From assembly GCA_000004985.1 (NCBI GenBank), contig GG738931.1: a stretch of DNA of 64,000 nucleotides; one strand, 5' to 3'. The notes under the pieces were generated by a model. That model saw only the letters and a program-made list of their open reading frames with translations. It was not told the origin of the DNA and searched no databases. Origin of the DNA: Naegleria gruberi (taxonomy: Eukaryota). The position numbers were made by a program, and so were the translations under genes. Numbering within the stretch: the stretch's first letter is position 1; each line of letters opens with the position of its first letter. Positions 18,986-57,007 of this stretch are shown here, in pieces.

Positions 18986-20110
18986 TTACATTACAGAACA
19001 TTTTTTCGATTGTTTCATCAACTTTCTCTGCTTTTTACAAGTTTCAATGAATGCAGAATCGTGTTGAATGACTTCCTTCAGGAGTTTCAGATTATCACCT
19101 GATCCATATCTCTTTAGTCTTACACATTCTTCATATACTCGAATAATGTTTTCTCCCGTCTTGGCACTTGTTTCAATGATGAAAGTATTGGTCAATTGAG
19201 ATTGTTTAATGATGGTAGCAATTTGGTTAGTAAATTTCTCAATGGTGATTGGTCGATCTGTTTCATTCAATAAATCGACCTTATTTAAGGCAAATACTAC
19301 TGGAAAGCTATTTTCCTCAAAGTCCTTAACTCTTACTAATTGTTCTACAAGTGGTTCGGCTTCTTCCACTGAATTACTATCTACCAAATCACAAACAAGA
19401 ACGAAACACTCTCCATATCTCATAAAATGATCTCTCGCGGACTTGATAAATTTAATTAGTTTAGAATGGCATTATTCTAAAGAACTTACACTGTATTCAT
19501 GTTCAGCAGAGTCCAAAACTTCAAATAATGTAGGAAAACCATCAACCAACAATTGTTTTCTATAAACATCCTCTATTGTTGGATCATATTGTTCAATAAA
19601 GAAATCTTGTATATATTTCACTGTCATTGCAGACTTTCCTATTTCAAAATAATTAACCTATTAACAGAAAATTATTAAATTCTTACCTACTCCTCCCTTT
19701 CCAATCATCACCACTTTAGTTTTCTCAATTCCATCCAATTTTTTAGGTGTTCCCCAAATGTGAAACTTAATAAATGCAGCCATCAGCACTTTCCTCTTCA
19801 ATTCTCTCTTTAGAATCATTTCCTCCTTCAGTAAACTAAACTCCTTCTCCAAAGATGGATTAATTCCAAACCAAATCTCCCAAACCTTCCACCAAAATCT
19901 ATCAAAATATCGTTCCATCTCTGGCATACTAGCAATCTTCCTATTCAATGATTGAAAATTAGCCATATATCGTACATAGGATCGTATTTCACTGCTCCCA
20001 CTCGAAAAATTCTTTTTCAGCAATTCGGAATCTCCCACTCCGAACGATAAAATGTGTTGATAAATTTCATAGGGAAGTGATGAGAATTGTGTGATGTGTT
20101 TTGGAGCCAT
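18986..20110 (-). CDS. F-box-like N-terminal domain fused to an atypical Ras-family small GTPase with a CaaX tail. This is copy A; it has three exons.
   Basis: Exon 1 spans 19687..20110 (MAPKHITQFSSLPYEIYQHILSF...VVMIGKGGVGK). Intron 1 spans 19639..19686. Exon 2 spans 19490..19638 (SAMTVKYIQDFFIEQYDPTIEDVYRKQLLVDGFPTLFEVLDSAEHEYS). Intron 2 spans 19442..19489. Exon 3 spans 18986..19441 (SARDHFMRYGECFVLVCD...ALNKVD...ETSAK...KKCSVM*). Both donors are GTAAGA/GTAAGT. The start is set at MAPKH by homology with copy B. The ORF-track extension upstream of it, to 20272, is taken as UTR. Confidence 0.8.
18986..20110. repeat. arm A of an inverted gene-sized duplication (partner at 55880..57007)
   Basis: I compared exon 3 and the intron sequences of the two copies by eye. 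They are about 95% identical at the nucleotide level, including the introns. Similarity ends within about 10-15 bp beyond the start and stop codons. Confidence 0.8.
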
Positions 20111-20271
20111 TTTTTTCTGATGTTCAAAACCAAGTTCACTGTTGTTTTGCCGATTACAACAATTACAACGGAACGACTCTTCTCCTGGTGGGAAAGGAGC
20201 CAAACATAATATTGGCTTGCAGAGATGAATCATCGAAATATTACTCAACCACATGCCAATCCGAAGCATCA

Positions 20272-21738
20272 TTATTTTCTATTGATAATTGAAAGATCTG
20301 TAAATGGATGTGGTGACTTGACAATATAATTAAACTTGTTAGGAAATAATGTAAATTGGTTCCTTCTATAATTGACTTTAACAATGGTACCAACAGCAAT
20401 AGTTGCACGTCCATCCCTAATTATAATTCTTCCAAGTTTGTTGCAATCATTGTAGCTATCCACAAATAATGGAACAGTAGGTGCCAATTCAACAAGTGCT
20501 ACATCTCCTATTTCAAGACAGGATGGATTTTCCTCAATTATTATTGAGCTATCTGTAGGATTCAATATCCCAATCAATTTCTCAAATTTAGTATTGGCAA
20601 AAGCTAGCCCACAATGTACTATTGGAGCATAACCAGCCCTTATTGAGGGTTTAGGAGTATTAATTATTGAAATTTGTGCTATAAACCTGGATGCTGCCTT
20701 ACATGGTGAAAAATATGGATCGCTTATTATGTAACCAGTTTTAGTTGGTGGCAGATTATCGAATTCAATACCAACCAGAGAGTTGGAAAATGCTCTCTCC
20801 TTGTTGGTATGTGAAATTTGAATATTCTTCACTCTCACATTAATCAATTCTCCACTATGCACTCGTGGAATTTGAACTGTCATTCCAACCTTAACCATTC
20901 CACTAATAATATATCCAGCAAGAATGCCATTCGGCAACTTGGGTTTAAAAATTGCAATTCTCAATGGCTCTCGCAAACATTCCTCAACAGTCCTTTGAAA
21001 GTTGGTTTCCATATTATTCAACGTTTCAGTGAGTGTTTTTCCACAATACCATTTCATATTTTCTGACCTCTCAAAAACATTATCTCCACACTCTCCACAA
21101 ATTGGAATGAATGGAATTTCTTGCTTGATTCCAACTGTCTTGATTAATTTACCAATACTTGTTTTAATTTCCAAAAATCTCTTCTCTGAATATTTCACAC
21201 AATCCATCTTATTGACACACACTATGAACCTCTCAATTCCAGCAACTTTTGAATAAATTAGTTGCTGCTTATAAGAAAATGATAGATTCTCTCGGTGGAA
21301 TCCAGCTTCAAACTCTCCATCAGATGCACTAACCACCATCAAACAAACATTTCCCATCGAAATCCCTTGAATTGTCTTCTTTATAAAATCACCATGTCCA
21401 GGTGTGTCAATAATCCGAAATTGACAAGCAGACAATTCAATTACATGTTTAGCATTCACATCAGTACTTATTTCTCTCTCTGCCTGAGTTGGAGAATCCA
21501 GCATGAGTGAAGAGATATGAAAATGATTTCTATTTCCCATCCATGATTGAATTCCAAATCGTTGAAAAATCGCTTGTTGTCCTTGCTGATAAAGCTCACA
21601 TTGACGCTTTAATTGTTCATAAACTTGTGGTTTAATTTTTCTTACCAATTGACCACCAAGTGTTGATTTTCCGCAGTCTACAAATCCAATCAAGACTAGA
21701 TTAAATTCTTCGGGTTTGATTTTTCTATGATCAGACAT
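20272..21738 (-). CDS. divergent eEF1A/HBS1/eRF3-family translational GTPase (488 aa)
   Basis: Recognised elements: G1 GFVDCGKST (canonical GHVDSGKST), QAEREISTDV (ERERGITID), G3 IIDTPGHGDF, GEFEAG, G4 VNKMD, a domain II beta-barrel (ILAGYIISGMVKVGMTV) and a domain III (RIIIRDGRATIAVGTIVKV). Only 11 residues precede the P-loop. Confidence 0.8.
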   Translation of the reverse strand: MSDHRKIKPEEFNLVLIGFVDCGKSTLGGQLVRKIKPQVYEQLKRQCELYQQGQQAIFQRFGIQSWMGNRNHFHISSLMLDSPTQAEREISTDVNAKHVIELSACQFRIIDTPGHGDFIKKTIQGISMGNVCLMVVSASDGEFEAGFHRENLSFSYKQQLIYSKVAGIERFIVCVNKMDCVKYSEKRFLEIKTSIGKLIKTVGIKQEIPFIPICGECGDNVFERSENMKWYCGKTLTETLNNMETNFQRTVEECLREPLRIAIFKPKLPNGILAGYIISGMVKVGMTVQIPRVHSGELINVRVKNIQISHTNKERAFSNSLVGIEFDNLPPTKTGYIISDPYFSPCKAASRFIAQISIINTPKPSIRAGYAPIVHCGLAFANTKFEKLIGILNPTDSSIIIEENPSCLEIGDVALVELAPTVPLFVDSYNDCNKLGRIIIRDGRATIAVGTIVKVNYRRNQFTLFPNKFNYIVKSPHPFTDLSIINRK

Positions 21739-23264
21739 TTTTTTTTAAATAAAATTACAAAAAATTTAATTAATTGGAAATTTAATAATTGCAACAAATA
21801 TATTAATGCATTTGTTCCAGGCAATTATATTCGAATAAAATTTATGCGAATAAATTTCATACTAAATAAATTCGCATGGTTTGGTAATGCGAAATTCATT
21901 CTTATGGTCATAACTTCCATAAATAAAGGATATGTTGAGCAAAGGTGTTTATCATTCTCCTTTTCCAATATTTGAGGAACAACCAATAAGACCAAAACCA
22001 TCGTGAAAAGTCATATTTTATATGGTGTTAAAGATTAGACTCTTTCTTCCTGATTTCAATTCAGGGAGTGTCCAAAATTTGTACAACATTTCCAAACAAT
22101 CATGATATCAATCCCTCCTCATATCATGAAGTGAGAAATCATATTTATATGAAGAATAACCTCAGAATAATTTGCAAGATTTCAAAAACCTAAATACACA
22201 AAAACACAATAAAACATGATTAGAGAATCAACAATGGATTATTTACATGTAACTTGTCTAGTTTACATCAACAAATATGGTGTAGGTGATATGAAATTTA
22301 ATTAAAAACAGAAAAATCAAAATCTTCATGATTTCAACGAAACAAGACGAAACAATTGATATAGTACATCTACAATAGTACAAATAAAAGTTTATTAATG
22401 TTTCAAGATGATTGGCTGTGTACTTTTGGCATGAATCATGATTGGTGACCATGAATAACCCGAAGTTGACAAAAACACAAAATGATGAAAAACTTATAAT
22501 AAATATATTGTTTATTATGTATTTGAATAGTAGTGATGAAAGACATTTTCCAAGTTGGTGAAGTACATGTTGAGATATAGTCTATGTACATGTGAAAATA
22601 TACATGTACCTAACATCATGATAACCAATAGGGAAATGTTCGGAAGTTATTTTACCTGATGGAATCGACCATGCTGAACAATACTAGATTGAAAGTTTTC
22701 CAAATTATCATGTGCATCTGGCAGTGATGATGATTTTAGTGAAAATATTCAATTTCACTAAAATATTACTATTATCAGATTTATTTCCGCAAATATTACT
22801 ATTATAATGATGATAAATAACAATGATGATGGTTGGTAGTTGTTTCGATGATGATGTACCAACTTGAATTTTTCCAAATAATAAAATTATTTCCAAATCA
22901 TGATGAAGAATTAAATTCCAAAAATTACTATTAATACTGTTATTTAAATCATGATGAGATGATGTGGTGAAATTCTTGGAGTTAATAGATGTGAAATCAC
23001 TCCAAGAATCAACAGAGTCGTGATGTACCTGATGTTGTTTCAATATTTTTGAAATATTTTTCAAAGTTCTTACAACTACGAATCGGTGTGTCCAAAGATA
23101 TTTTTTGCATGTAAGAATGATGCGACCGAATATTACTGAATAATTTTTTATACGGGTTTATTTCGTATATAACAGCATTATTATCAAGATCTGTTTCTTA
23201 CAGATAATAAAACCTTAATGCATTCGGTGTCCGAATTTTGCCTCTTAATAATGGAGAGAAAAAA

Positions 23265-25217
23265 ATGAAAACAAATCAACAACGAAGGAAGCCTTCGATT
23301 TTCTACGATACAATTTTTTTATTATCGGATGGCTATTTTTTTATTGATCAAGTGCTTCCGTTCTTCTGCTTTGCAGATTTTGAAAATTTATTTCTCACGT
23401 GTAGGGAGGTGGCACGATTGGTGAGCAAACAGCACCATGTTCGGTATTTGGTTAGAGTTAATGAACAGGCATTTAAGTGTCATCAACGATGGAGTGATTT
23501 TAATAATCATCATCAATATAGGAAAAGGGAATTTCCATCGTTGTTGCATTTTGCGGATGGGATAAAGATTTATCTGGAAGTAGTTGGAGGATTAGTGGAT
23601 AAAGTTATTGAATATTGTGGAAAGAGTAACAAGTCATTGAGTATTTGTTATAGAAACAACTATTATTCGAACCATGCCGAGTTGATGAAAAAGCTTGATA
23701 GCCCATCATTCAATAGGGTTAATACTTTTGGATTGTTACAGGCTGATATCGATAGTTATGAACCATTCTTAAAATTGTTTGCAGGGAAGAATGTGAAGAA
23801 GATTGAACTTTCAGCAGGATATTTCAGGAATGATTTCATTTCTATCACAAAACCAATTCTTGAAAAGATTAATTTTGGAGAGGTGCATTTTTCCATTTCC
23901 GGCTTTTATTACTCTATCGCTAGTTTGGCTGAAACCTTATCTAAAATGGATGTGAATGATAGAAATAAGATTAGGATTACAATAGGCAATGGTTGTACTA
24001 TTACTGGAAGTGATTATAGTTCCCTGAAGAACTTGGCGAATTTATTTCAATTTCAAACAATCACTATTTCAGACCCACCTCTAGTATCTCATCTTGTTGA
24101 TTGTAATTTTAGTTTGTTTGCGAATTCTTATAATGTAGAGGCAAAATCACTTACAAATATTGAAGATGTTGCTTTTCCCAAATTCTCAAACAACAAACCA
24201 CCTAGTTTTGAAATGAAGTATATTGAATTATCACTCACACCTACGAATGTTAATAACTTTCATGTATTGCACACAACAAAATATTTAACCTTATTAACCA
24301 TGAATAATTGCTCTATTGAGTTTTCTAATATAGAAAAACTAGAGTTGAATCTACTTCAATCTTTGAAATTGAATAAGTGCTCATTTATGAAAAATGGCAT
24401 AGAATCTAATATTGAATTTATTGAATGGATAGATACGGAAAGGCTTATAAATTTAACATGTGAATTCCTCAAGTTGAAAAAGATTCCTAATATCAAGTCA
24501 AAAGCACTTCACAATTTGAAAATTAGCAATAATGAAATCGAAACTATTGACCTGGAAACTTTGAATAGTCATAAATATTTGGCCTATCTGGATTTGAGAC
24601 ACAACAAATTGAGTGATCCAGATAATATTAACATGATTGTTGGAAAATATAGTCAATTGGATTTGGAAGGTAATCCAGCTTTAAATAATGTGATGATTGA
24701 CAAGAAGAAATTAGAGGTTATTACTGATTTCAAATACAATACCAATAGAGGAAGTAAGGTTATCACAAGACCTCTATTTTCAGGAACAGACACGGAGATT
24801 TTCAAATCATTCAAATCAGCTCTGAAAAGAAACAAGAACACTTTGCCTCCATTCAACAGCAAGGAGGACCTGATACAAGTAATAGAAAATCCAAAAAAGC
24901 TCACTAGCATTGAAAATACGAATGTAATATTCTGGAACAATAATTATAGCAACAACCAGAAATCATTTTCTTGTGATGGAAATTTAACTCGTGTTGGAAA
25001 AATTTCTTCACACTTTTGTCAGATTGCAATTCATCTCAATTCAAAATTACAACATCAATATGGTATGAAGTGGCTGCTATTTGGATTTAATGAATTCAAC
25101 GTAGAGCCATTGGATAATGAAAAAGTAATGTCTCAACTTTCGTATATTGTTCATGAGTGGTCCTTCATGTCTTCACACATTGAATTTGTTCGGGAATTGA
25201 GAAGAACATATCCATAG
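23265..25217 (+). CDS. leucine-rich-repeat-containing hypothetical protein
   Basis: The track start at 23238 is TTG; the first ATG is at about 23265 (MKTNQQRRK). LRR-like segments include LHNLKISNNEIETIDLETLNSHKYLAYLDLRHNKLSD and LELNLLQSLKLNKCSF. Confidence 0.6.
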   Translation: MKTNQQRRKPSIFYDTIFLLSDGYFFIDQVLPFFCFADFENLFLTCREVARLVSKQHHVRYLVRVNEQAFKCHQRWSDFNNHHQYRKREFPSLLHFADGIKIYLEVVGGLVDKVIEYCGKSNKSLSICYRNNYYSNHAELMKKLDSPSFNRVNTFGLLQADIDSYEPFLKLFAGKNVKKIELSAGYFRNDFISITKPILEKINFGEVHFSISGFYYSIASLAETLSKMDVNDRNKIRITIGNGCTITGSDYSSLKNLANLFQFQTITISDPPLVSHLVDCNFSLFANSYNVEAKSLTNIEDVAFPKFSNNKPPSFEMKYIELSLTPTNVNNFHVLHTTKYLTLLTMNNCSIEFSNIEKLELNLLQSLKLNKCSFMKNGIESNIEFIEWIDTERLINLTCEFLKLKKIPNIKSKALHNLKISNNEIETIDLETLNSHKYLAYLDLRHNKLSDPDNINMIVGKYSQLDLEGNPALNNVMIDKKKLEVITDFKYNTNRGSKVITRPLFSGTDTEIFKSFKSALKRNKNTLPPFNSKEDLIQVIENPKKLTSIENTNVIFWNNNYSNNQKSFSCDGNLTRVGKISSHFCQIAIHLNSKLQHQYGMKWLLFGFNEFNVEPLDNEKVMSQLSYIVHEWSFMSSHIEFVRELRRTYP

Positions 25218-25234
25218 AGATATAATTACAGATT

Positions 25235-27766
25235 TTATAATTCGAACTGTGATGATTGAGAAGGAAGATTTCCCTGTTGTTTTCTATTCAATACAAACAT
25301 TACAATAGACACAATCAATGCAATCATACACAAACACATTAGAAGGAAGAAAGTTGGAACTAGAATTGCAATTAAAATGACTGATAAATCTCCAGTACTG
25401 ACCGTTGAAGAAGCTGAACGATTTGTGAGAGCTGATCTCTGGACAGCAACAGAGGAAATGTAGGAAGTAGAACAGATTATTTGATTAGAGGTGGAAAAGG
25501 ATGAGGTAACTAATTGATTCGTCCAACTATTCGAATCATAATCAAATCTCAAACAAGTATAATTATAATTGGAAACATCAAAAATCAAACCACTGAAATA
25601 ATACTTGATTTGCTTAGATAACTGAATATGAATCAACTCTGATTTGGCATTCTGAATCATGAAATTAGTAACATTCGAATAAAATTGCTCATTCGACCGA
25701 GTTGAAGAAGTGCTGAAATAAAAACTATTGGACGATAAATTCAATCCAAAAGTAGAACCATCCTCAACGTAAATCAATTGCTTTTCATTTGCCAAACTCA
25801 GAACCAAATATTCCCAAGTATTTGATGACATCTTTACAAAGGTTTCAGTTTCAGAGCCAGTGGAACATGTCAATTCGTTGCTGTCACTGTCTAAATCCAT
25901 CAAACATTCAATAATGGAACAATCGAGATATTTCCAATGAGTATTGCATGAACAAGTGTTATTGGAAATGCAAGTTCCATGATTACTGCAATTACTCAAT
26001 GCATCACATGAAATTGTTGAACATTGAGAATTACCTTTCCAACCAGAATTACATTCGCATGAATTATTCGAAACACAACTTCCATGACCTGAACATTCGT
26101 TTAAGGCATCACATGAAATTTGAGAACATTGAGAGTTTCCTCTCCATCCTGAATGACAGCTACAAGTATTATTCGAAACGCAATCACCATGATGAGAACA
26201 ATTATTAAGAATTTCACATGTGAAAAGTGAACATTGAGAATTTCCCTTCCAACCAACTTGACATTCACACGTATTATTCGAAACACAATTTCCATTACCA
26301 TAACAATCATTCAAAGCATCACAGCTAATCACAGAACATTGAGCATTTCCTTTGAATCCACTTTCACATGAACATGAATTATTCGAAACACATTGACCAT
26401 GACCTGAACAATTGTTTAAAGTTTCACAAGTAAAGTTTGAGCATTCAGAATTACCAAGCCAACCATTGTTGCATTCGCATGTATTATTCGAAACACAATG
26501 TCCATTTCCATTACATTCGTTTAAAACTTCACAAGAAAAGGAAGAACAAGAAGAATCTGATTTCCAACCTGATTCGCATGAACAGGTATTATTTGAAATG
26601 CATGAACCGTGACCTGAACAGTGATTCAAAGAATCGCAACTAATAGCTGAACAATGAGAATTACCTTTCCAGCCAGAATTACATTCGCATGAATTATTCG
26701 AAACACATTGTCCATGATTATTGCAATGATTTAAAGCTTCACAACTAAATAAGGAACAATTAGAATCTCCTTTCCATCCTGAATAACACATACAAGTATT
26801 ATTCGAAACGCATGAGCCATGACCATTACAATTATCAACTAGCTCACAAGACGGAGTTTTACAATTTTCACCATGCCAATAATCATCACATTGACATGTA
26901 TTATTCGAAACACATTGTCCATGTCCAGAACAATAATTCACGCCATCACATGAAAATTGAGAACAGTTGACATTTCCTTTCCATCCAGATTGACAGGAAC
27001 AAGTATTTGCTGATATACAACTTCCATGATCTAAACTGCAATTATCTCTGGAAATGCAATTAAAAAATTGACACTTGTTTCCATGATAACCATCAGAACA
27101 GACACAATTATTTGGAGATGGACATGAGCCATGACCAGAACAAACTAAACTAGAGGTGGACAATACATTATAACATAATGGAGTGGTGCAGTTTAGTCCT
27201 TCCCATAAATAGGTATTCGAAAGTCCAGCTGTCCAAGTGTGGGTTTCCCAACAAACTTCCTCTTGAGCTCCGTAGAGAACTAAATTACCATCATTTTGTA
27301 AAACTAATCTAAAAGGAGCTGTTCCAGAACCACAACTACTTGCTAATCCTAACAGATTAGTACTCCCACCATTTCCTTTTATGGACAAGGAACCATCTGT
27401 GGCCAAAGCCAAGACATATGGTCCACTTCCACCTGTAGCAGTATAGGATTTCTTCTCCTCAGCTGTAATAGAATTCATAAGAGACAAGACACCACTCGAT
27501 TTCATGGCCAAAGTAAAGGTTCCATCTGTGGACACGAGAGATTCTCCCTGAACTAAAGTTTGTCTTCTGTCAGCTGTCCAAGCAGAGTAGATGGAGTTTT
27601 GATAGACACTATCGACACAATAGCAAGTACCATAGTTACAGACTCCATGACTACCACACGAATCTTGTTCAGTTGCGAGAATGCCATTACAAGTGGACAC
27701 AGCCAAAGTTGTGCTTGCCAATGAAAGCAAGTTGACCAGAAGAAGAAGAGAAATTAAAAGCTTCAT
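25235..27766 (-). CDS. type-I membrane protein with a signal peptide, a bulb-type (mannose-binding) lectin-like domain, about 14 tandem EGF-like modules and a C-terminal TM
   Basis: Signal peptide MKLLISLLLLVNLLSLASTTLA. B-lectin-like motif ...VLQNDGNLVLYGAQ.... Repeated module CSGHGQCVSNNTC.C.SGWKGN..CS..SC..LN.C..HG. TM helix LSVILIAILVPTFFLLMCLCMIALIVSIVMFVL. Confidence 0.8.
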   Translation of the reverse strand: MKLLISLLLLVNLLSLASTTLAVSTCNGILATEQDSCGSHGVCNYGTCYCVDSVYQNSIYSAWTADRRQTLVQGESLVSTDGTFTLAMKSSGVLSLMNSITAEEKKSYTATGGSGPYVLALATDGSLSIKGNGGSTNLLGLASSCGSGTAPFRLVLQNDGNLVLYGAQEEVCWETHTWTAGLSNTYLWEGLNCTTPLCYNVLSTSSLVCSGHGSCPSPNNCVCSDGYHGNKCQFFNCISRDNCSLDHGSCISANTCSCQSGWKGNVNCSQFSCDGVNYCSGHGQCVSNNTCQCDDYWHGENCKTPSCELVDNCNGHGSCVSNNTCMCYSGWKGDSNCSLFSCEALNHCNNHGQCVSNNSCECNSGWKGNSHCSAISCDSLNHCSGHGSCISNNTCSCESGWKSDSSCSSFSCEVLNECNGNGHCVSNNTCECNNGWLGNSECSNFTCETLNNCSGHGQCVSNNSCSCESGFKGNAQCSVISCDALNDCYGNGNCVSNNTCECQVGWKGNSQCSLFTCEILNNCSHHGDCVSNNTCSCHSGWRGNSQCSQISCDALNECSGHGSCVSNNSCECNSGWKGNSQCSTISCDALSNCSNHGTCISNNTCSCNTHWKYLDCSIIECLMDLDSDSNELTCSTGSETETFVKMSSNTWEYLVLSLANEKQLIYVEDGSTFGLNLSSNSFYFSTSSTRSNEQFYSNVTNFMIQNAKSELIHIQLSKQIKYYFSGLIFDVSNYNYTCLRFDYDSNSWTNQLVTSSFSTSNQIICSTSYISSVAVQRSALTNRSASSTVSTGDLSVILIAILVPTFFLLMCLCMIALIVSIVMFVLNRKQQGNLPSQSSQFEL
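25950..27150 (-). repeat. tandem array of about 100-105 bp coding repeat units (EGF-like modules) inside the lectin-EGF gene
   Basis: Recurring ...gaaacacaa/gtccatgacctgaaca... units, visible as near-identical protein modules (CVSNN[ST]C[ES]C.SGWKGNSQCS). Confidence 0.5.
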
Positions 27767-29249: not shown

Positions 29250-29540
29250 TTTTGCTATTAAGGTTATTTGTTTTGTTTTTTTTGTGTGAAAATATTAAGA
29301 TGTGCAAACTTGTCCAATTTGAAGTGTTGGTGTTGGTAAAAACTTTTCATTGTAAAATATTACTGCCCCGTAAACAAGTTTTTAACCCTGAATTGTGCAA
29401 ATCCAACTGTGTGTGGGGATGAAGCTTCAACTTTAGATTCATATTAGGAACTCAAAAATGGAAATGTACATTTGATCATCTCTTTATTTGTCGATGATCT
29501 TTGAAAAATGCAAACATTGTGCAGCATCACCTTGTGTGTG

Positions 29541-36013: not shown

Positions 36014-36044
<31 letters not shown>

Positions 36045-46491: not shown

Positions 46492-46534
46492 ATAACTAGT
46501 TCAATAATTAATTATTCAAAAAAGAATTGCTTTA

Positions 46535-47590: not shown

Positions 47591-47710
47591 CTCGTGAGTC
47601 GAGTATTGAATAGTTTGTTTTTGTAAAGATATTTTACAATCGAAATCTAATCATTCCAAATCATTTTTGTATAAATATTGTATAATATTGTATAAATTCT
47701 TTACAAAGAA

Positions 47711-48277
47711 TTACTTACAATCTTGACTTTCTACAATCAACACATTAAAATCAACAATTGATTTGCCCAACATTTGAGAAACTATTCCTTTTGGTGTAGA
47801 AGAACCAGTTCCTGCACTGTTTTGTTTCTCCTCGGTTGGTGTTGCAGATTCGTCAAGTTTCGGCATCTTTCCTTCCAAATATTTCTTATTCTTTTCATCT
47901 AGAGAAACCTTTTCCAATGGTTTAGATTGATGAATTAAATACAACTCCTTAATTAAATTATAAACCGAGGAAGCATATTCCATACTTTTACATTTCAAAT
48001 CATGTTCAGTTTTAGAATCGTCTAATTTAATCGAAACTTTCTTCTTTACACAATTTAAACTTTGAATTTGTTTGTATTCTAAAGCAACTTTAGGTTTCTT
48101 ACAAAGAATCCTATCTTTACAAATGTAAAGTGTTCCTTTAGAAAGAATTGATCCTTTAACATCATATTCGGCAATGATGATATCATCTACGGAGAATGAC
48201 TTTCGAATAACAGAGTCGAAAGCATCGGGTTCTAAATGGTCGGCAGCAGAAACGTTCGATTGACGAAACTTTCTCAT
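47711..48277 (-). CDS. hypothetical protein with a GRAM/PH-like N-terminal domain
   Basis: IIIAEYDVKGSILSKGTLYICKDRILCKK resembles the GRAM-domain core (G.LY.T...I.F). The C-terminus is K-rich. Confidence 0.4.
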   Translation of the reverse strand: MRKFRQSNVSAADHLEPDAFDSVIRKSFSVDDIIIAEYDVKGSILSKGTLYICKDRILCKKPKVALEYKQIQSLNCVKKKVSIKLDDSKTEHDLKCKSMEYASSVYNLIKELYLIHQSKPLEKVSLDEKNKKYLEGKMPKLDESATPTEEKQNSAGTGSSTPKGIVSQMLGKSIVDFNVLIVESQDCK

Positions 48278-48592
48278 TTCTTCTTTGATTTTTTTTTAAT
48301 AATTGATGACATGCGAATTTAATTACAGTTGCAAAGATATTCAAGAGCTGTCAACCATCATCTATTGACAAGCGAATCATAACAAGTAGGATCTAACTTT
48401 CAGCTTTAGTATTTCATTATCCACAACCACAAATAACATGTTCCAAATAATAATAAAAATCATAATTTTGCAAATAATTTCAAAAACTTGATCGTTGCTT
48501 TTCCCGCTCAAAAAAACAATTAAAAATTAAAATCAAAATTTTTTATATAAAAAAAATACAGAAAATGGTGTAGAGGCTTTTTTTCTCTGCAA

Positions 48593-49870
48593 TTATTGGT
48601 CGGAGGCTGTGCTTGTTGGTTGAACATTGGCAGCAGCTTGTTGACCAGAGTTTGGATAGGACCCTTGTTGTGGATAGTAGTTATATGGATAGGTTGAGGC
48701 GCCACCTTGAGGATAACCTTGTTGTGAAGGATAGCCATAACCTTGTTGTTGTGGGTATCCGTATCCTTGTTGTGAAGGATAACCTTGTTGTGGGTATTGT
48801 TGTTGTTGAGGATAGCTACCACCTTGGGAAGGATATTGCTGACCATAGTTATATGGATAGGTAGAACCTTGTTGTGGATATTGTTGTTGTTGGTTATAGT
48901 ATGGATAAGAACCTCCTTGTTGAGTTGGATATTGTTGTTGTTGTGCAGGATAGGTAGAACCTTGAGGATAACCTTGTTGAGTTGGATATTGTTGTTGTTG
49001 GGTTGGATACTGTTGTTGTGCAGGATAGTTTGAACCTTGTGGGTATCCTTGTTGCTGAGTGGCTGGATATTGAGTTGGATATTGTTGTTGTGAAGGGTAA
49101 CTTGAACTTGGATAGTATTGTTGTTGTGGATATTGTTGTTGATTTGGATACTGTTGTTGTTGTTGACCATATTGAGGAGCAGACAAGAATTGTTGTTGAC
49201 TTGGTTGACCTGGTTGACCTGGTTGTTGACCTTGTTGTGGCTGTTGACCTGGTTGACCTGGTTGTCCTCCTTGTTGTTGTTGGCCATTGTTATTATTGTT
49301 ATTTGATTCTTGGTAATTTCCTCTAAAGCTAGCAAGGGCTGCTTCAATTTGTGAGGATGTGGATTGATACTTCTTCCAATCCTTAGCTTGCAAATCAGTG
49401 ATAAGTTCAGTGGAAAGTGGAACAAGTTTCTCCTTAACAATCTTGAAATCTTCTGGTTGACCTTCAAAACCACCCTTTTCTTCATTTTGCAATTGCATAA
49501 TATTGGATTGAATGGTTCTGGAGGCGCTGTCAATCAAACTACAATCTTTGAATCCATTATCACCCCAACAAAAGCTTCCAAAACTATTAACCATATTCAA
49601 TTGCATTTTAATGTTACTGACTGCACTGGATACTCTTGATTTTGGAGTATTTTGTTGTTGTTGTTGTTGTTGGCCTTGACCTTGACCTTGACCTTGTTGT
49701 GGTTGTTGCCCTGGCATTTGTTGTTGAGGATAGCCAGCTCCTGGATATTGACCAGGTTGCTGTTGTTGGAGTGGATTTGTTTGGAATGGTCTTCCATTTA
49801 CGACTTGGTATTGTGCCACTACTAGTAATGAAATATTTAGTAGCAAAACTGTTAGAACTATTAGTTTCAT
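48593..49870 (-). CDS. secreted Q/Y/P/G-rich repetitive (prion-like, adhesive-type) protein
   Basis: Signal peptide [20 protein letters not shown]. Then poly-Q/GQ tracts and about 15 imperfect repeats of QQQYP(T/S)QQG(Y/S)YPQ. The opposite-frame N-rich ORF 48520..49533 and the other small ORFs in this region are shadows of the repeat. Confidence 0.65.
49640..49700. repeat. coding microsatellite: (TTG)n followed by (GACCTT)n on the plus strand, which reads as (CAA)n/(GGTCAA)n on the coding strand
   Basis: Seen directly: ttgttgttgttgttgttgttggccttgaccttgaccttgaccttg. Confidence 0.8.
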
Positions 49871-49998
49871 TTTCTTTTTGATGATTCAATAGGATGATCA
49901 GGAGAATCCACTATTAAGATCGCAACTTTCTTTAACCACTTTTGGAAAGACAATTGATAAAAAACTTTTTTATTTTTGATATATTGTACATTTGGAGA

Positions 49999-52900
49999 CT
50001 AATGGCATGTCTTGCTATTTACTAAAAAAGTTGCTTGTTTTGCTAGATAGCTTTGGTCAAGGTTCTTGAAAGGAATTAGTGCTTTACATTCACTATCTTC
50101 TAATTTGGAAAGAGCCTGAATAACCTTATGTACATGGGAATTTGTGAGTCTGTCACCACTTCCTGGGAATTCATAATCTGATTTGAAGAGAGTTGCCAAT
50201 CTCAATAACATTTCATTTTCCTCTTTCGTATTTCTCTCGTTCAGTATTTGCTTCCATTTCTGATAAGTTACATTTTGCATTGGCTCCTTTTTCAATAATT
50301 TAGCTTCTGTTGTTGCTGCTATGGAGAGTAAATCGTCAATGTGAATGACGAATTTATCTAGATTTGCCAACTCGAATATGAAATAGTTTGGATTTTCGTG
50401 AAGATCTGTTACGAATGCATTCTCATTCTGTGTCAACTGTACAATGACTCTTGAAATAATATCTACTGGGACAATGTTTAGAGTTCTGTTCGTCTTTGGG
50501 AAGCAATTCATTTCAAAACATCCCATGACTAATCTATTGACCCAATCTATTAAATTAGAAACTCCATTGACAGTATCACTTCCAATCATACCAGGTCTGA
50601 AAATGGCTCCTGGATATCCCAATAATCTTGCTTGTTGAATATATTGTTCGGCAACAAACTTGGTGCTACTGTATCCATTAGCTCTTTCAATAATTGGTTT
50701 GAGTTGCCTCATGACTTGATCCATGTGATTGTTAATTAAATCCGTAATATCTTTCTTATTGCTAATTCCAGATGTACTGGTTGGTATTCCAAAGAGTGAT
50801 AATCCAGATTGCAATACTCCAACTGTAGAGACGAAAACTATTGGGGCTAAAGTGGAATCTCCACTTTGAATATTCAATTTAGATGATAAGCAAGCCAATT
50901 TCAATAATGAAAGAGTAGATCCAGTATTTGAGGAAAATAATTGAGGATATGACATGACAGAGTTGACATACGCTCCGTTGTGATAAATAATATCAATATT
51001 TTCTGCCAGTTTCTTGAATTCTTCCTCAGTGAGTCCTAAATTATCATCTCCTAAATTACCCTTGACAACTGAAATTCTCTTTTCATACTTGTCATTCCAA
51101 AGTTTGAATTCCACAAGGTTTTCTTTCACTCTCATGAAAACGTCATCTTGATGATTCTTTTCTCTGACTATACAATAGACTTTGACATTTTCTTCAGCTT
51201 TCTCTAATGCTTCCAATAAATCTCTCAATATAAATGCTCCTAGGAATCCTGTTGAACCTGTCAATAGAATACCCTTCTTCAAATCGGCTATCTTTTTAAA
51301 TTGCGTATTTCCTCTTGATGTGAGGTCTATAATGTCATTCAACACATCTTCAGGAAGGAGAATATCCTTCTTCCAATCATGGGATGAATTGACTGTGGCA
51401 ACATCATCATGTTGGTTTTTGGTGACAAAATCTGAAACTCTACTCACTACGCTATCCACATTTCTGTCAGTTTGAGAAAATATCAGCGAGAGTGGAACAT
51501 CAATGTTATACTTTTGCTTCATAATACCAGAAAATTTAACAGCGTGAAGACTGTCAATAATTTTCATATTTCCATCAGATTCAGCTGAACCTGTTTGAGA
51601 ATTTAACAATAATTCACGAATCAAATCTTCATCCAATTTCCTCTTGTTAATAGACTCTAGGTGCTCATAAAGAGCTTCCAACTCTTCCTTATACTTCATT
51701 TCGCATCCAAATCTCTTAACTTTCATTGAAGAGGTAAGGAGATCGTTCTTCTCACTAAATGACTCAAATTCAATAATAAAGTCCTTTGGCACTTCGTATG
51801 GAAGAAGAGAGCAGTTCACAGATACTTTCTCAATTTCCTCACACAAAACCTTTTTAACCTTTTCATTGGTTTTCAGCAAGTCCTTCTCTGAATCACTCAA
51901 GAGCTCTTCACTTGATGAGTTGATGAGCCCTTCCTTGATTGCAAATTGTTTCAAAACCGTTTGATTAGGTACAATTACACCTACAAGGTAGCTTTTCGAC
52001 ACATTTCCATAAATGAAAGCTTGGAAGATGAATTTTGAGGTAGTCAGAGCATCTTCAATCTTTGCAGGTGCAATAAATTCTCCTTGACTCAATTTGAAAA
52101 TATTCTTGAGTCTGTCAATAATTCTAATGTGTCTTGGACCTAGCTCCTCAACAATATCATTAGTATGCAACCATCCTTCCTCATCCAAAGCGTTTTTCGT
52201 AAGTTCTTCATTCTTGTAATATCCAATGAACATGGTTTTTGTTTTAACACAAAGTTCTCCTCTTGGATAAGGTTTGTCATTTGTGAAATAGTTCATGTCA
52301 GGTACGTCAACCAACTTGTACTCAACAGAGCTATGAAGTCTGTTATCATTCATGATACCTCCTGCTTCTGACATTCCAAAACCATCTGAAACGAAGCAAT
52401 TAAAACATTTTCCAAGAAATTCTCTAACTTGTGGGCTTGAAGAGGCTCCTCCAATAATTATTGATTGTAAGCGACCACCCAACATGTTTCTAAAATCTTT
52501 CATTACTCTTTCTTCAAGTTCTCTCTCCGTTTTAGGTCTATCCTCATTTTGATTCGAAATACCTGAAAGCCAACTTGTCTTTTCCAATTCGTACACTTTT
52601 TTATACTCATCATAGAGTACATTATAAAGTCTTGGTGTTGAGGCAATGACAGTAGGTTTGACCTTTTGAATATCCTCAAAGATGTGAACAAAATCTCTGG
52701 TAAATATTCCCACTCTAGCACCATCACACATGGCCAAAAGGGTGTGTTTTCTGTCACTCATGTGAGCAAGAGGACAGAATGAAAATTGTACTTTTGGATT
52801 TTCAGCTCTGAAACCATGCATTTCTCTTCTCAGAGATTTGTCACTAACCATTATGCCCTTCGGCTGACCTGTCGATCCACTCGTGAAAACTAACGATAGA

Positions 52901-53973
52901 AGATCCTCATCTTTTTCTAGTCTATTCAAAATAAAGTCCTGGTGTTCCACATCAATCCACATCTTATTTGGATTATACTTGTTTTTTGGAGTGACGAGGA
53001 TAGTCTCGTGATTTTCAAAGTGTTTTGGATATCTTTTTTTCTTAGGTTTGTTCTTTTCGTTCAAGTATTCACATAAGATTGATTTTCCCTTGTCAATAAT
53101 CTCGTTCATTGGCAGAATTTCAATTTCTTGTTTACCACTGTTTGTTGTGAATTTACTCTTGGATTTTCCTTCATTATCATCCATTACTACAATATATTTT
53201 ACAAAGTCCAATTGTTTTGTAATGCTGATGAAAAAATCGAGCATTTCTAAAGTACAAACGACAACCTGACTATCGGTCAGTTCAACAATATGTTTCGTCT
53301 CATCAAAAGTTTGGGCAAAGTGAATAGGAGCAGCCACAAATCCCTTGAAGAAACAAGCATAATCACACAAGTACCAATATAAATTATTCTTTCCACAAAT
53401 GGATACAAATTGTCTCTTATTTTCCTCCCTCAAAGGTTTTAAAATTTCATCCAGTCCAACAGCAATACAACAAACCAAGTGGAATACTTGTTCATATCGA
53501 AGCCAATGATAAGGTCCGTCATCCTCTTTCAATATTCCAAAGCAAGGATTCATTGAATTTTCAATAAAACTCCGAAACAGTGTACTATTGACACGATCGG
53601 CCTCTGATCTTTGTTTGATTTCATGATAGTGATATTTTGTTGGTACAAAATATTCAAGATCCTCACAAAATGTTTCCAACCAGAGTTCTCTTTCCTTTTC
53701 TTCTGGTGTTTTTTCCTCATTGTCAACTTGTTGATGATTAGGAGATGCATTCTTCCTTCTCTTCTTACATTTATCCCAACACCAATCGTAACACTTCTCG
53801 CACAAATCAGTTCCCTTGTCATTGGTATTGGTATATCGGATTGTGTTTTCAATAACACCCAAACACATATTACAAATCCATCGATATGAAACCGATGTGA
53901 CGGTGAAGTTGGTTGGTTTTTCCTCCACTTGCAGTTTTCCACGAGAGAATAGGGAGGTGATCTTGTTGAGCAT
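49999..53973 (-). CDS. tri-domain enzyme: an ACSL-like adenylation (AMP-binding) domain, a carrier-protein (thiolation) domain and a C-terminal NAD(P)-dependent thioester reductase. It has an N-terminal Cys-rich zinc-finger-like segment.
   Basis: AMP-binding signature LVFTSGSTGQPKGIMV. The ACSL-like core is GELCVKTKTMFIGYYKNEELTKNALDEEGWLHTNDIVEE. After the A-domain end (VPKDFIIEFESFSE...KVKRF) comes a carrier-like segment with DSL (ESDGNMKIIDSLHAVKFSGIM). Then a reductase Rossmann motif ILLTGSTGFLGAFILRDLL and YSSTKFVAEQY (YxxxK). The N-terminus has C..C...C..C (CNMCLGV...CEKCYDWCWDKC). It is a single 1324-aa ORF. Confidence 0.85.
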   Translation of the reverse strand: MLNKITSLFSRGKLQVEEKPTNFTVTSVSYRWICNMCLGVIENTIRYTNTNDKGTDLCEKCYDWCWDKCKKRRKNASPNHQQVDNEEKTPEEKERELWLETFCEDLEYFVPTKYHYHEIKQRSEADRVNSTLFRSFIENSMNPCFGILKEDDGPYHWLRYEQVFHLVCCIAVGLDEILKPLREENKRQFVSICGKNNLYWYLCDYACFFKGFVAAPIHFAQTFDETKHIVELTDSQVVVCTLEMLDFFISITKQLDFVKYIVVMDDNEGKSKSKFTTNSGKQEIEILPMNEIIDKGKSILCEYLNEKNKPKKKRYPKHFENHETILVTPKNKYNPNKMWIDVEHQDFILNRLEKDEDLLSLVFTSGSTGQPKGIMVSDKSLRREMHGFRAENPKVQFSFCPLAHMSDRKHTLLAMCDGARVGIFTRDFVHIFEDIQKVKPTVIASTPRLYNVLYDEYKKVYELEKTSWLSGISNQNEDRPKTERELEERVMKDFRNMLGGRLQSIIIGGASSSPQVREFLGKCFNCFVSDGFGMSEAGGIMNDNRLHSSVEYKLVDVPDMNYFTNDKPYPRGELCVKTKTMFIGYYKNEELTKNALDEEGWLHTNDIVEELGPRHIRIIDRLKNIFKLSQGEFIAPAKIEDALTTSKFIFQAFIYGNVSKSYLVGVIVPNQTVLKQFAIKEGLINSSSEELLSDSEKDLLKTNEKVKKVLCEEIEKVSVNCSLLPYEVPKDFIIEFESFSEKNDLLTSSMKVKRFGCEMKYKEELEALYEHLESINKRKLDEDLIRELLLNSQTGSAESDGNMKIIDSLHAVKFSGIMKQKYNIDVPLSLIFSQTDRNVDSVVSRVSDFVTKNQHDDVATVNSSHDWKKDILLPEDVLNDIIDLTSRGNTQFKKIADLKKGILLTGSTGFLGAFILRDLLEALEKAEENVKVYCIVREKNHQDDVFMRVKENLVEFKLWNDKYEKRISVVKGNLGDDNLGLTEEEFKKLAENIDIIYHNGAYVNSVMSYPQLFSSNTGSTLSLLKLACLSSKLNIQSGDSTLAPIVFVSTVGVLQSGLSLFGIPTSTSGISNKKDITDLINNHMDQVMRQLKPIIERANGYSSTKFVAEQYIQQARLLGYPGAIFRPGMIGSDTVNGVSNLIDWVNRLVMGCFEMNCFPKTNRTLNIVPVDIISRVIVQLTQNENAFVTDLHENPNYFIFELANLDKFVIHIDDLLSIAATTEAKLLKKEPMQNVTYQKWKQILNERNTKEENEMLLRLATLFKSDYEFPGSGDRLTNSHVHKVIQALSKLEDSECKALIPFKNLDQSYLAKQATFLVNSKTCH

Positions 53974-54110
53974 TTTTTTATGAAGATGAAAGTTTGTGAT
54001 TGTTGATGGCTCAAGGATGAACCAGATAATGTGTTATTGTGTTAATTTTGTGATTAGTATTGCCATCATGTAATACTAATATTATTGAGTTTAAATTTGA
54101 GTTGAATAAA

Positions 54111-55616
54111 TTAAAGAATCCACATGAAGAGAATCAAACAAGTGGAGACAACAAGTGTTGTCCAAAAGATACTCGACAATGAGTACAGATACTTCTTAAA
54201 GGTGTGATTCAATCCATATACTTCCTGAATGAATGTGCTTACGGTTGTGAGGGAGCCACAAAATCCAACCGAGAATGCATCAATCCAATAAACAGCAACA
54301 CCAGAGGTGAAACCTGAAACGTAGGCAGTACCTTGTAAAATAACCAAGATTAGAGAGCCAATGATATTGACAGCAAGTGTGAAAATTGGCATTTGGAATC
54401 TTTCAACAGCTTTAAATGTAATATTTAGCTTGCAAATTAAATATCTCAATAAACAGCCAAGAGGAGCAACGAGGAGAGTGAGGCAAAGACTTTGATCCAA
54501 TGATTTTGAAACGTTCATAGCACCAAGCAGAACAATAAAAACTGAAATGACAGCCATCAAAACTACAAACAAATCAACAGCCATTTTGATTGCTGTTCTT
54601 GATTTCCATTTGGCATTTCTAATTTGTTGATACTCTTCCAGTAATTTTCTTTTGAATAATTCTCCATTACTCTCGGCAATATATTTAATTTCACCTTCTT
54701 CCAAGAGAATCTTTCTCTGATCCTCATTTGGAATTGGTTCTACAATATCTACATCTTCAGCCAATCCAGAAGCAACACTCGAAGATGCAATTGAATTAAC
54801 ACTATTTTGACTTGTCATTGTGACCTGTTGTGGCGCCTTTGCATTTCCAAATTTCTTCCTCAAAACAGGAATCACAAAACTCAAAATTGCATTTGTAATA
54901 TCCTTCGCAATTACAAATGCAAAATAACAAGTTGTAAAACCAACTACTTGCTTACTCACAAACGACAAGACATCTCCCTTCATTAAACTAATTGCAGCAT
55001 TCACTTGCCAACTTGAAAATGTTGTAATGCATCCACACATCCCAGTCGATAGTCCAGTATATATCCTCTTCTCAAACGACAATGTTCCATGAAAAACTCT
55101 ATGCAGAAACAACTTGACCATTCTCTTCTTTGATTCCTCCATTCCTTCCAAAGATATTGCTGATGAATTATTACTCTTCACCATAATAGGAGTATTACTT
55201 TCACTACTACTACCATTATTATTATTATTAGTAACCTTATTCTTTTCCAATTCAACTAACAAGGCCTTCTCCTTCTCCTTCAACTCTTCCAAAGGCTTTT
55301 TAATAAAGTGCAAATGAATGACCATTAAAACTCCCATGATGAAGCAACCCACAATATTTGCATACAAATCGGAGAAGAATAAATCATCAATGGATTGAAC
55401 GATATTACCATTGGATGATGTCGATGGATTCATAATATTGTTATTATTGCTATTATTATTGGAGGAGGAGAGGGAAGGCTTGTAGAGAGTGTCGGAGAGA
55501 AGAATTCGAATTAAAACACCAATCATGCAGAATACGATGAGGTAGGCAATGTAGAGTAAATGTTTGGATAAATTGATGGCAAATTTGAAATTTTCTTTGA
55601 GTAGTTGCATTGTCAT
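54111..55616 (-). CDS. fluoride export protein FEX (tandem CrcB/Fluc domains)
   Basis: Two CrcB-like halves, each with the signature G..G..TTFS.[FW]: GMCGCITTFSSWQVNA and GFCGSLTTVSTFIQEV. Eight to nine TM helices. There is a long N/S-rich and charged loop between the halves. Confidence 0.75.
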   Translation of the reverse strand: MTMQLLKENFKFAINLSKHLLYIAYLIVFCMIGVLIRILLSDTLYKPSLSSSNNNSNNNNIMNPSTSSNGNIVQSIDDLFFSDLYANIVGCFIMGVLMVIHLHFIKKPLEELKEKEKALLVELEKNKVTNNNNNGSSSESNTPIMVKSNNSSAISLEGMEESKKRMVKLFLHRVFHGTLSFEKRIYTGLSTGMCGCITTFSSWQVNAAISLMKGDVLSFVSKQVVGFTTCYFAFVIAKDITNAILSFVIPVLRKKFGNAKAPQQVTMTSQNSVNSIASSSVASGLAEDVDIVEPIPNEDQRKILLEEGEIKYIAESNGELFKRKLLEEYQQIRNAKWKSRTAIKMAVDLFVVLMAVISVFIVLLGAMNVSKSLDQSLCLTLLVAPLGCLLRYLICKLNITFKAVERFQMPIFTLAVNIIGSLILVILQGTAYVSGFTSGVAVYWIDAFSVGFCGSLTTVSTFIQEVYGLNHTFKKYLYSLSSIFWTTLVVSTCLILFMWIL

Positions 55617-55879
55617 TTTTTTTAAATTTTGTGTTAATTAATTAACTTAAATATTAAATACACAATATTATTAAATATTGTAAACAGTCAAGTCATGAAA
55701 TCTGCATTTATTTTTCCTTAATAAACTTTGTAATCAAACATTAACATCTCTCTTTGCTCTTCCAAGTTCAACACGAACATCACCGAACCAAGTTCTTAAT
55801 TGACCAAAAAAACAACTTTCAATACTTACTGTATCGAGAACTTCCTCAAACACATCAAACATAACACACAAGAAAAAAA

Positions 55880-57007
55880 ATGGCTCCAAAACGCATCACA
55901 CAATTCTCATCACTTCCCTACGAAATTTATCAACACATTTTATCGTTCGGAGTGAGTGATTCCGAATTATTGCTGAAAAAGAATTTTTCGAGTGGGAGTA
56001 GTGAAATTCAATCCTGTGTACGATATGTGGCTAATTTTCAATCATTGAATAGGAAGATTGCTAGTATGCCAGAGATGGAACGATATTTTGATAGATTTTG
56101 GTGGAATGTTTGGGAGATTTGGTTTGGAATTAATCCATCTTTGGAGAAGGAGTTTAGTTTATTGAGGGAGGAAATGATTCTAAAGAGAGAATTGAAGAGG
56201 AAAGTGCTGATGGCTGCATTTATAAAGTTTCACATTTGGAGAAGAATTAAAAATTTGAATGGAATTGATGAAACTAAAGTGGTAATGATTGGAAAGGGAG
56301 GAGTAGGTAAGAATTTAATAATTTTCTGTTAATAGGTTAATTATTTTGAAATAGGAAAGTCTGCAATGACAGTGAAATATATACAAGATTTCTTTATTGA
56401 ACAATATGATCCAACAATAGAGGGTGTTTATAGAAAACAATTGTTGGTTGATGGTTTTCCTACATTATTTGAAGTTTTGGACTCGGCTGAACATGAATAC
56501 AGTGTAAGTTCTTTAGAATAATGCCATTCTAAACTAATTAAATTTATCAAGTCCGCGAGAGATCATCATATGAGATATGGAGAGTGTTTCGTTCTTGTTT
56601 GTGATTTGGCAGATATTAATTCAGTGGAAGAAGCCGAACCACTTGTAGAACAATTAGTAAGAGTTAAGGACTTTGAGGAAAATAGCTTTCCAGTAGTATT
56701 TGCCTTAAATAAGGTCGATTTACTGAATGAAACAGATCGACCAATCACCATTGAGAAATTTACTAACCAAATTGCTACCCTCATTAAACAAACTCAATTG
56801 ACCAATACTTTCATTATTGAAACAAGTGCCAAGACGGGAGAAAACATTACTCGAGTATATGAAGAATGTGCAAGACTAAAGAGATATGGATCAGTTGATA
56901 ATCTAACACTCCTGAAAGAGGTTATTCAACACGATTCTGCATTCATTGAAACTTGTAAAAAGCAGAGAAAGTTGATGAAACAATCGAAAAATTGTTCTGT
57001 AATGTAA
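55880..57007 (+). CDS. F-box-like N-terminal domain fused to an atypical Ras-family small GTPase with a CaaX tail. This is copy B; it has three exons.
   Basis: Exon 1 spans 55880..56306. Intron 1 spans 56307..56354 (GTAAGAATTTAATAATTTTCTGTTAATAGGTTAATTATTTTGAAATAG). Exon 2 spans 56355..56503. Intron 2 spans 56504..56551 (GTAAGT...tatcaAG). Exon 3 spans 56552..57007. Spliced protein: MAPKRITQFSSLPYEIYQHILSF...VVMIGKGGVGKSAMTVKYIQDFFIEQYDPTIEGVYRKQLLVDGFPTLFEVLDSAEHEYSSARDHHMRYGECFVLVCD...ALNKVD...ETSAK...KNCSVM*. The introns are nearly identical to those of copy A. Confidence 0.85.
55880..57007. repeat. arm B of an inverted gene-sized duplication (partner at 18986..20110)
   Basis: As for arm A. 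The arms are in opposite orientation and about 35.8 kb apart. Confidence 0.8.

Follow-up and report, generated by a model that had tools for sequence, protein, structure and literature searches.

Interlocus gene conversion is exemplified by the primate γ-globin genes, the duplicated ribosomal-protein genes of yeast, and the arms of the human Y palindromes, and inverted-repeat-mediated inversion by non-allelic homologous recombination is exemplified by the int22h repeats at human F8. The present study concerns two Ras-family small GTPase genes, here called copies A and B, that form an inverted pair within a 64,000-nt stretch (the window) of contig GG738931.1 of Naegleria gruberi strain NEG-M (assembly GCA_000004985.1), a heterolobosean in Discoba and not a dictyostelid, as a preliminary description of this DNA had assumed. 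Comparison of the two copies with each other and with a metagenome contig from a close relative suggests that they are separate loci that have probably been kept alike by repeated, short-tract ectopic (interlocus) gene conversion and are not the product of a single recent copying. Near-identical, dispersed α-tubulin genes have been described in N. gruberi (Lai et al. 1988, PMC2115128). Homologous-recombination and mismatch-correction genes have been reported in Naegleria, the genomes of the genus encode meiotic and recombination genes, and 182 Ras-like GTPases have been reported (PMC9928731). [quoted passage not shown]

A repeat search found one inverted pair of at least 100 nt in the window (18979-20024 and 55969-57014; 1046 nt ungapped, 96% complementary). 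Self-blastn at a word size of 9 joined the two arms across a 3-bp indel (55874-57014 against 20116-18979; 96.06% identity over 1141 columns, E=0) and returned no second inverted match in the window. Together with the gene models, these searches bear out the mirror-strand, three-exon duplicates of the preliminary description, whose figure of about 95% identity is corrected to 96%. In a pairwise alignment that included 300-nt flanks, similarity between A and B begins ~6 nt before the ATG and ends ~7 nt past the stop codon. The ~6 shared nucleotides upstream of the ATG are an A-run in both arms, and ORFs (open reading frames) throughout the window often begin "..KKM" in the ORF list, that is, with the A-run AAAAAAATG right before the start codon; because this run is a generic start context, the homology of the arms extends essentially from ATG to stop. 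The same run, AAAAAAATG, seen for example at 55872-55882, 20108-20118, and 21736-21746, has the look of a start context used across the genome, or else of very short, A-rich 5′ leaders. When the 300-nt flanks of the two arms were aligned locally, they scored no better than shuffled sequences (P=0.36 upstream, P=0.33 downstream), and six-frame ORF blastp (E≤1e-4) detected no paralogy between the ORFs flanking arm A and those flanking arm B. The duplicated unit is thus gene-sized, consisting of the coding sequence (CDS) plus introns, as the preliminary description had proposed, and the identity well beyond the gene that would mark a large segmental duplication was seen neither in the alignments and blastn searches nor in the flank shuffles. 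The copies are arranged head-in and tail-out on one scaffold, their 5′ ends facing the intervening segment and their 3′ ends pointing outward, 35.8 kb apart, with unrelated promoters and neighbors. Inverted repeats of high identity therefore surround a unique segment, with the caveat that a scaffold gap lies between them.

Both copies are intact three-exon ORFs, of 342 aa (copy A) and 343 aa (copy B). About 45 columns of their alignment differ, among them a codon indel that keeps the frame, which corresponds to 4% divergence. Their 48-nt introns are identical, with no differences in 96 nt, in keeping with the near-identity noted at the outset. Apart from the codon indel, 38 codons differ, 25 by replacement and 13 only synonymously, and the overall Nei-Gojobori estimates are 0.069 for synonymous divergence (dS) and 0.034 for nonsynonymous divergence (dN), a dN/dS of 0.5. 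The coding differences had been described as mostly conservative, which they are not, since among the replacements are G>R, P>I, F>H, K>T, S>I, G>V, and Y>C.

The outside reference for these comparisons is an independent ENA metagenome contig of 3071 bp, reached via a close homolog (P0003) and designated L001. It aligns to positions 53953-57034 of the window at 94.6% identity over 3.06 kb, an alignment that runs from a CrcB gene (Pfam CRCB, E=1.3e-26 in L001) through the intergenic region and the entire Ras gene to 27 nt of downstream flank of the copy-B type. Because of the CrcB synteny and of this level of identity, which includes the intergenic region and the downstream flank, L001 is identified as the locus of copy B in a close relative of NEG-M; it reproduces arm B with its two junctions, in the same configuration as in the window. 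Neutral divergence between NEG-M and the relative is ~0.05, judged from CrcB (dS 0.048, dN 0.0026) and from the intergenic region (~6%). Intron 2 of the L001 gene (L001:2539-2580) is 42 nt long and lacks an in-frame stop, and a prokaryote-style gene caller read through it to give P0003; the NEG-M introns both contain in-frame stops.

In a three-way alignment of A, B, and L001, sites unique to one sequence were counted in each of four tracts, and the tracts proved discordant. In the first 232 nt of the CDS, copy A has no unique sites, copy B has 11, and L001 has one, so that A differs from L001 at a single position and B differs from it at 12; the corresponding dS values are 0.00 for A-L001, 0.082 for A-B, and 0.083 for B-L001. 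Thus, copy A (20110-19880) is here nearly identical to the ortholog of copy B. Over the rest of exon 1 the unique sites number 7, 5, and 2 in A, B, and L001, respectively, and the differences are mixed. The central 307 nt run from intron 1 through exon 2 and intron 2 to nucleotide 58 of exon 3; here A and B differ at four positions and have only one and three unique sites, and L001 has 41. In the last 399 nt the counts are 11, 4, and 12. Along these four tracts, dS between A and B takes the values 0.082, 0.083, 0.025, and 0.077. Codon-based estimates over exon 2 and 19 codons of exon 3 give a central dS of 0.025 for A-B, 0.18 for A-L001, and 0.21 for B-L001, with a dN of 0.17, and the introns, which do not differ at all between A and B, differ from those of L001 at 13 of 97 positions. 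Overall, the relative departs from A and B by about 13% across the central region.

The mosaic is supported by several tests. The order of site patterns shows 29 runs against 57.9 expected (runs test, P<1e-5), the sites unique to L001 are clustered (P=1e-12), and a maximum chi-squared breakpoint test on A- and B-unique sites gave a permutation P of 0.0034. The 5′ asymmetry is significant by Fisher's test (11:0 against 12:19, P=3e-4). Differences between A and B are depleted centrally, with four of the 42 falling in 307 columns (binomial P=0.005), and the divergence of the central introns from L001 exceeds the intergenic level (P=0.005). In the central tract, A and B are therefore near-identical at neutral sites, while both are four times more diverged from the B ortholog than is the neighboring CrcB gene; within NEG-M the two paralogs resemble one another more than copy B resembles its ortholog, the hallmark of concerted evolution, and adjacent tracts give discordant relationships. 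Homogenization reaches neutral sites, as identical introns lie beside exon tracts at a dS of ~0.08, and a likeness that extends to introns and synonymous positions cannot, in the central tract, be due to selection on the protein. No single tree or uniform clock fits the tracts.

Collectively, these comparisons point to patchy interlocus gene conversion, one of the two histories that the preliminary description had put forward. In this model, a double-strand break in one copy would be repaired from the other copy, and heteroduplex formation and its repair would overwrite a patch of a few hundred nucleotides. The old flanks are taken to have diverged to saturation, and the tracts would stop at the limits of the CDS and its introns, since beyond them the arms have no homologous sequence. 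We infer the mechanism, as well as the number and direction of events, from sequence patterns. At least two exchanges appear to have occurred: a separate one that would have involved the first ~230 nt of the CDS, and the most recent, which would have homogenized the central ~280 nt (intron 1, exon 2, and intron 2). The central exchange would also have left in both NEG-M copies a switch II sequence, DSAEHE, that is not present in the relative's copy B. As for polarity, DSAEHE is regarded as the altered state because most family members, and L001 itself, carry DTAG[P/Q]EE.

Several points weigh against this interpretation. L001 is the sole outside comparator and is a k127 short-read metagenome contig; beyond ~127 nt from the unique flanks it could be a chimera of that organism's own paralogs, and a single k-mer links the copy-B-type flanks only to the first ~5 B-unique 5′ events and the last 3′ site. 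No ortholog of locus A was found in another strain: the 502-aa downstream neighbor of copy A, used as a query, matched only N. gruberi NEG-M proteins, and a search of JGI (Joint Genome Institute) metagenomes with an N-terminal family profile and with an exact 24-nt pattern that A, B, and L001 have in common gave no match. The pattern in the 5′ tract, taken alone, could come from accelerated change on NEG-M copy B, and the 5′ asymmetry is weak when only synonymous sites are considered (3.5 against 0 and 0). Finally, the divergence of the central tract could stem from a conversion by another paralog on the relative's own lineage, which would still be an interlocus event.

The alternative that survives best, although we regard it as unlikely, is one recent gene-sized duplication, followed by independent divergence; template switching mediated by microhomology between the A-rich start contexts and the A/T-rich stop contexts is one way in which it could have arisen. 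The limits of homology do coincide with the ATG and the stop codon, an A-run is shared before the ATG, the overall dS, at 0.069, lies near the neutral value of ~0.05 between strains, and undetectable flank homology is what would be expected if the gene alone had been copied. However, such an event predicts uniform divergence between A and B and consistent branches, and the tract-wise branch lengths, with their opposed counts of unique sites in the first (0/11/1), central (1/3/41), and last (11/4/12) tracts, do not fit; the simple recent duplication entertained in the preliminary description is thus not upheld. Nor does it account for identical introns beside exons at a dS of ~0.08, or for a central tract whose dS of ~0.2 from the B ortholog is four times the neutral divergence between strains. 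Moreover, breakpoints within 10 nt of both ends of the CDS would be a coincidence.

An extension of the conversion model, to which we assign a low probability, is that the pair constitutes a selected recombination module. In such a scheme an advantageous DSAEHE variant would have been driven into both of two differently regulated copies, and recurrent exchange between the arms, possibly flipping the 36-kb block with both promoters, would redistribute variants of the N terminus and of the switch among two contexts of expression. 

It is very improbable that the pair is an assembly artefact, in which a heterozygous locus or a pair of alleles was separated into two copies or a contig was misoriented so that the inverted 36-kb arrangement is unreal. 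Naegleria has been described as mainly heterozygous diploid (PMC9928731), which favors such an explanation, as do the draft state of the Sanger scaffold and the 50-N gap between the arms, because of which the relative order, orientation, and spacing of the arms rest on (mate-pair) scaffolding. Against it, both reading frames are open despite about 45 differing columns and an in-frame codon indel; all four junctions enter unique, gene-bearing sequence in contiguous contigs, and the gap lies over 16 kb away from each of the arms; the flanks of alleles would be the same, and those of the arms are not; and arm B with both its junctions is reproduced by an independent assembly of an independent sample, L001. 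Neither a shared flank, nor a contig end or gap abutting an arm, nor differences at the level of alleles or read errors was found. The earlier concern that a single locus had been mis-assembled into two is thus not supported: the existence of two loci is solid, and only their orientation and distance depend on scaffolding.

We consider it just as improbable that the arms are the last recognizable remnant of a larger, old inverted segmental duplication, or palindrome, the rest of whose genes would have been lost or eroded. Flanks diverged to saturation are also assumed by the conversion model, a point in favor of the palindrome, but the blastn search that found no second inverted match was matched by an absence of mirrored paralog pairs in six-frame blastp, and the neighbors of A, an eEF1A-like GTPase and a protein that Pfam does not match, bear no relation to those of B, which are CrcB and a second protein without a Pfam match. 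Least probable of all is the insertion of the second copy as cargo of a mobile element, since, although the unit is discrete and sharply bounded, it is exactly one CDS with nothing extra, its boundaries lack terminal inverted repeats, target-site duplications, and poly(A) in the alignments, and the scanned ORFs in the vicinity of the arms contained neither a transposase nor a reverse-transcriptase domain. A retrocopy was rejected because the introns are retained.

Table 1. Coordinates of the inverted Ras-family gene pair, its converted tracts, and its surroundings in the window
Feature	Position	Strand	Evidence
Arm A, full extent of homology; contains Ras-family copy A (EFC36405.1 / XP_002669149.1)	18979..20116	-	Repeat search, self-blastn, pairwise alignment
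Arm B, full extent of homology; contains Ras-family copy B (EFC36379.1 / XP_002669123.1)	55874..57014	+	Repeat search, self-blastn, pairwise alignment
Copy A exon 1: N-terminal helical extension with F-box-like motif, first half of P-loop	19687..20110	-	GT..AG gene model
Copy A exon 2: switch I, G3 motif with non-canonical DSAEHE	19490..19638	-	
Copy A exon 3: G4 NKVD, G5 SAK, CAAX CSVM, then stop codon	18986..19441	-	
Copy B exon 1	55880..56306	+	Gene model
Copy B exon 2: same non-canonical DSAEHE as copy A	56355..56503	+	
Copy B exon 3, then stop codon	56552..57007	+	Gene model
Central near-identical tract, copy A: end of exon 1 to start of exon 3; 2 differences from B in 282 nt	19427..19708	-	
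Central near-identical tract, copy B: partner of 19427-19708	56285..56566	+	
5′ tract of copy B with 11 unique changes, including the 3-bp insertion	55880..56113	+	Column mapping
Intervening segment, gene-dense, not duplicated	20117..55873	.	ORF list, Pfam scans, tRNA scan
eEF1A/HBS1-like translational GTPase, divergent, upstream of copy A (165-nt spacer)	20275-21738	-	Pfam GTP_EFTU, only E=5e-25
502-aa protein downstream of copy A, no Pfam match	17054-18559	-	
CrcB/FEX fluoride-channel gene, divergently transcribed from copy B (263-nt spacer)	54114..55616	-	Pfam CRCB, E=1.7e-26
470-aa protein downstream of copy B, no Pfam match at threshold	57057-58466	-	
Assembly gap, 50 N, between the arms; only gap in the window	39370..39419	.	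N-run scan

The gene models in Table 1 were obtained by splicing out two 48-nt GT..AG introns, which restores the P-loop GKGGVG|KS. Both products contain a Ras domain (PF00071, residues ~132-299; copy A, E=4.7e-28 and 98.2 bits against a cut-off of 21.6; copy B, E=8.2e-27), have intact G1 (GKGGVGKS), G2 (YDPTIED), G4 (NKVD), and G5 (SAK) motifs, and end in the CAAX box CSVM, a C-x-x-x terminus being common to most family members. In canonical Ras GTPases, the G3/switch II motif is DxxGQ, with Gly60 and the catalytic Gln61. The DSA-EHE of NEG-M A and B departs from it, having Glu and His at the positions equivalent to the invariant Gly60 and to Gln61 and one residue fewer. Without the invariant Gly and the catalytic Gln, GTP-dependent switching is probably changed or abolished. 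Most family members carry a canonical G3, DTAG[P/Q]EE, which in L001 reads DTAGPEE. Two distant members from N. lovaniensis, KAG2386344.1 (DTAEHME) and KAG2378581.1 (ETSEHDD), also have Glu-His where Gly60 and Gln61 would stand, a variant that either recurs within the family or is old in it.

GenBank names both copies "ras family small GTPase" [Naegleria gruberi strain NEG-M] and places them on one 138,333-bp scaffold. The copy A protein is 100% identical to EFC36405.1/XP_002669149.1 and copy B corresponds to EFC36379.1/XP_002669123.1. The deposited copy A model, of 281 aa, starts at Met62, 61 codons downstream of the ATG identified here. These 61 upstream codons (19927-20110, minus strand) form an open frame whose ATG has the usual A-rich context and which has homologous counterparts in copy B and the ortholog; GenBank's version is thus probably truncated at its N terminus by 61 codons. 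Both copies are presumably expressed. A search of the literature library for the two protein accessions and for the metagenome project of L001 found no mention of them, and exact protein look-up found no further assemblies of the two NEG-M genes on record.

The copies are full-length heterolobosean Ras-type GTPases that carry a CAAX box and, at the N terminus, a helical extension weakly resembling an F-box. The combination of N-terminal extension, Ras domain, and CAAX box recurs in the N. gruberi proteins EFC38492, EFC35765, EFC40289, EFC45072, and EFC41788, all of them at most 56% identical to copy A, and full-library profile searches and cluster look-ups found the same architecture in N. lovaniensis and Willaertia magna; so far, the family has been found only in Naegleria and Willaertia. 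Two of the N. gruberi members, EFC35765.1 (on a 9.6-kb scaffold) and EFC40289.1 (on a 337-kb scaffold), form a second pair within the family that is more than 90% identical, and they represent either another homogenized pair or an unplaced haplotig. The preliminary description had called copies A and B F-box/Ras-like genes, and of this label the Ras part stands (PF00071, E=5e-28). No F-box was detected in either copy by Pfam, even at E≤10. The paralog P0002 has a below-threshold match to the F-box-like family PF12937 (E=0.14, 12.4 bits against a cut-off of 24.3), and PF12937 matches at E≤1 occur in 5 of 17 family sequences, the best at 2.1e-4. On the question of an F-box, AlphaFold2 (AF2) modeling from 14 sequences gave an all-helical structure with a pLDDT (predicted local distance difference test) score of 79; with three sequences the score was 50 and the model unusable. 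A Foldseek search returned no match, and a PDB sequence search returned nothing relevant. The F-box assignment may be kept as a plausible lead from sequence and is not a finding.

The segment between the arms encodes, in addition to the eEF1A-like GTPase and CrcB, leucine-rich-repeat (LRR), EGF-repeat, and Sel1-repeat proteins, a tRNA-Ala, an S41-peptidase-like protein, a degenerate Ras-like gene, and an AMP-binding/NAD_binding_4 enzyme. The Ras-like gene (45500-46488, plus strand) has two exons, a His-rich insert, and no recognizable P-loop, and its Ras match (E=2e-7) is only to the C-terminal half of the domain; it was rejected as a member of the duplicated unit because its similarity to A and B is marginal (E=0.01) and the P-loop is absent. 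The AMP-binding and NAD_binding_4 (terminal reductase) domains lie in a 1324-aa protein (50002-53973, minus strand) whose architecture is carboxylate-reductase-like or fatty-acyl-reductase-like. The tRNA-Ala(TGC) is a single gene in mid-segment (35978-36050, minus strand). The EGF/teneurin-like repeat protein at 25238-27808 (minus strand) is 27% identical to another at 1587-5942 (minus strand) and contains a 105/210-nt tandem array of about eight copies at 26001-26835 (66-72% matches). Short, degenerate tandem repeats with periods of 24-72 nt occur at 48713-49276 in the ORF 48596-49885 (minus strand), which has no Pfam match and whose product is probably a low-complexity secreted or surface protein. 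By eye, F-box-like N-terminal motifs are present in the products of 57057-58466 (minus strand) and 23265-25214 (plus strand) (LLCEIVSFLP.. and ..IDQVLPFF..); the former has a weak FTH-domain match (E=0.004) and the latter a weak LRR match, both below Pfam thresholds. The ORFs bordering the assembly gap, 36625-39330 (minus strand) and 39473-41497 (plus strand), appear to be cut by it.

A dispersed inverted gene pair under concerted evolution is a well-known phenomenon and does not challenge current understanding. The value of this pair lies in providing a documented case and a caution for assembling and annotating the N. gruberi genome. For the public genome it clarifies that two annotated Ras-family genes are real paralogs and that one of their models is apparently short at the N terminus, and it corrects the identity of the organism and of the gene family given in the preliminary description. 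It is also a clean, small example of interlocus gene conversion in N. gruberi and provides sequence-level evidence of active ectopic recombination in Naegleria. The most interesting detail is that, through conversion, a change as drastic for function as a degenerate switch II appears able to reach both genes of a pair.

Among proteins of Discoba, the family resembles TbFRP in that an F-box-type module would precede a Ras-like GTPase, although here the F-box is only a sub-threshold hint, and it differs from TbFRP in lacking a FYVE domain and in having a CAAX box. With respect to genome architecture, the pair is reminiscent of the int22h repeats, two high-identity inverted repeats around a unique segment. 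In contrast to these, the Naegleria arms are short and 4% diverged, so crossovers between them should be rare. A crossover that inverts the 36-kb block is mechanistically possible; it would create chimeric A/B genes, in which the 3′ gene parts and downstream flanks are swapped relative to the promoters. Only one N. gruberi assembly exists (PMC9928731). Evidence was found for neither inversion isomer, and L001, one independent contig, shows arm B as in the window. The α-tubulin genes come from the same organism, but they constitute a highly conserved and highly expressed structural gene family, for whose near-identity the abstract of the original paper gives no mechanism (PMC2115128); unlike them, the Ras pair evolves fast (dN/dS ~0.5-0.9) and has introns. 

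The closest correspondence is with the systems shaped by interlocus conversion. As in these, homology is limited to the gene, the flanks are unrelated, introns and synonymous sites have been homogenized, the tracts have discordant phylogenies, part of the gene is closer between paralogs than to the ortholog, and the repeats are inverted on one chromosome. The Naegleria pair differs from them in that the arms are only 1.1 kb long and 36 kb apart, in that there are only two copies, and in that one of the converted tracts carries a radical change in switch II.

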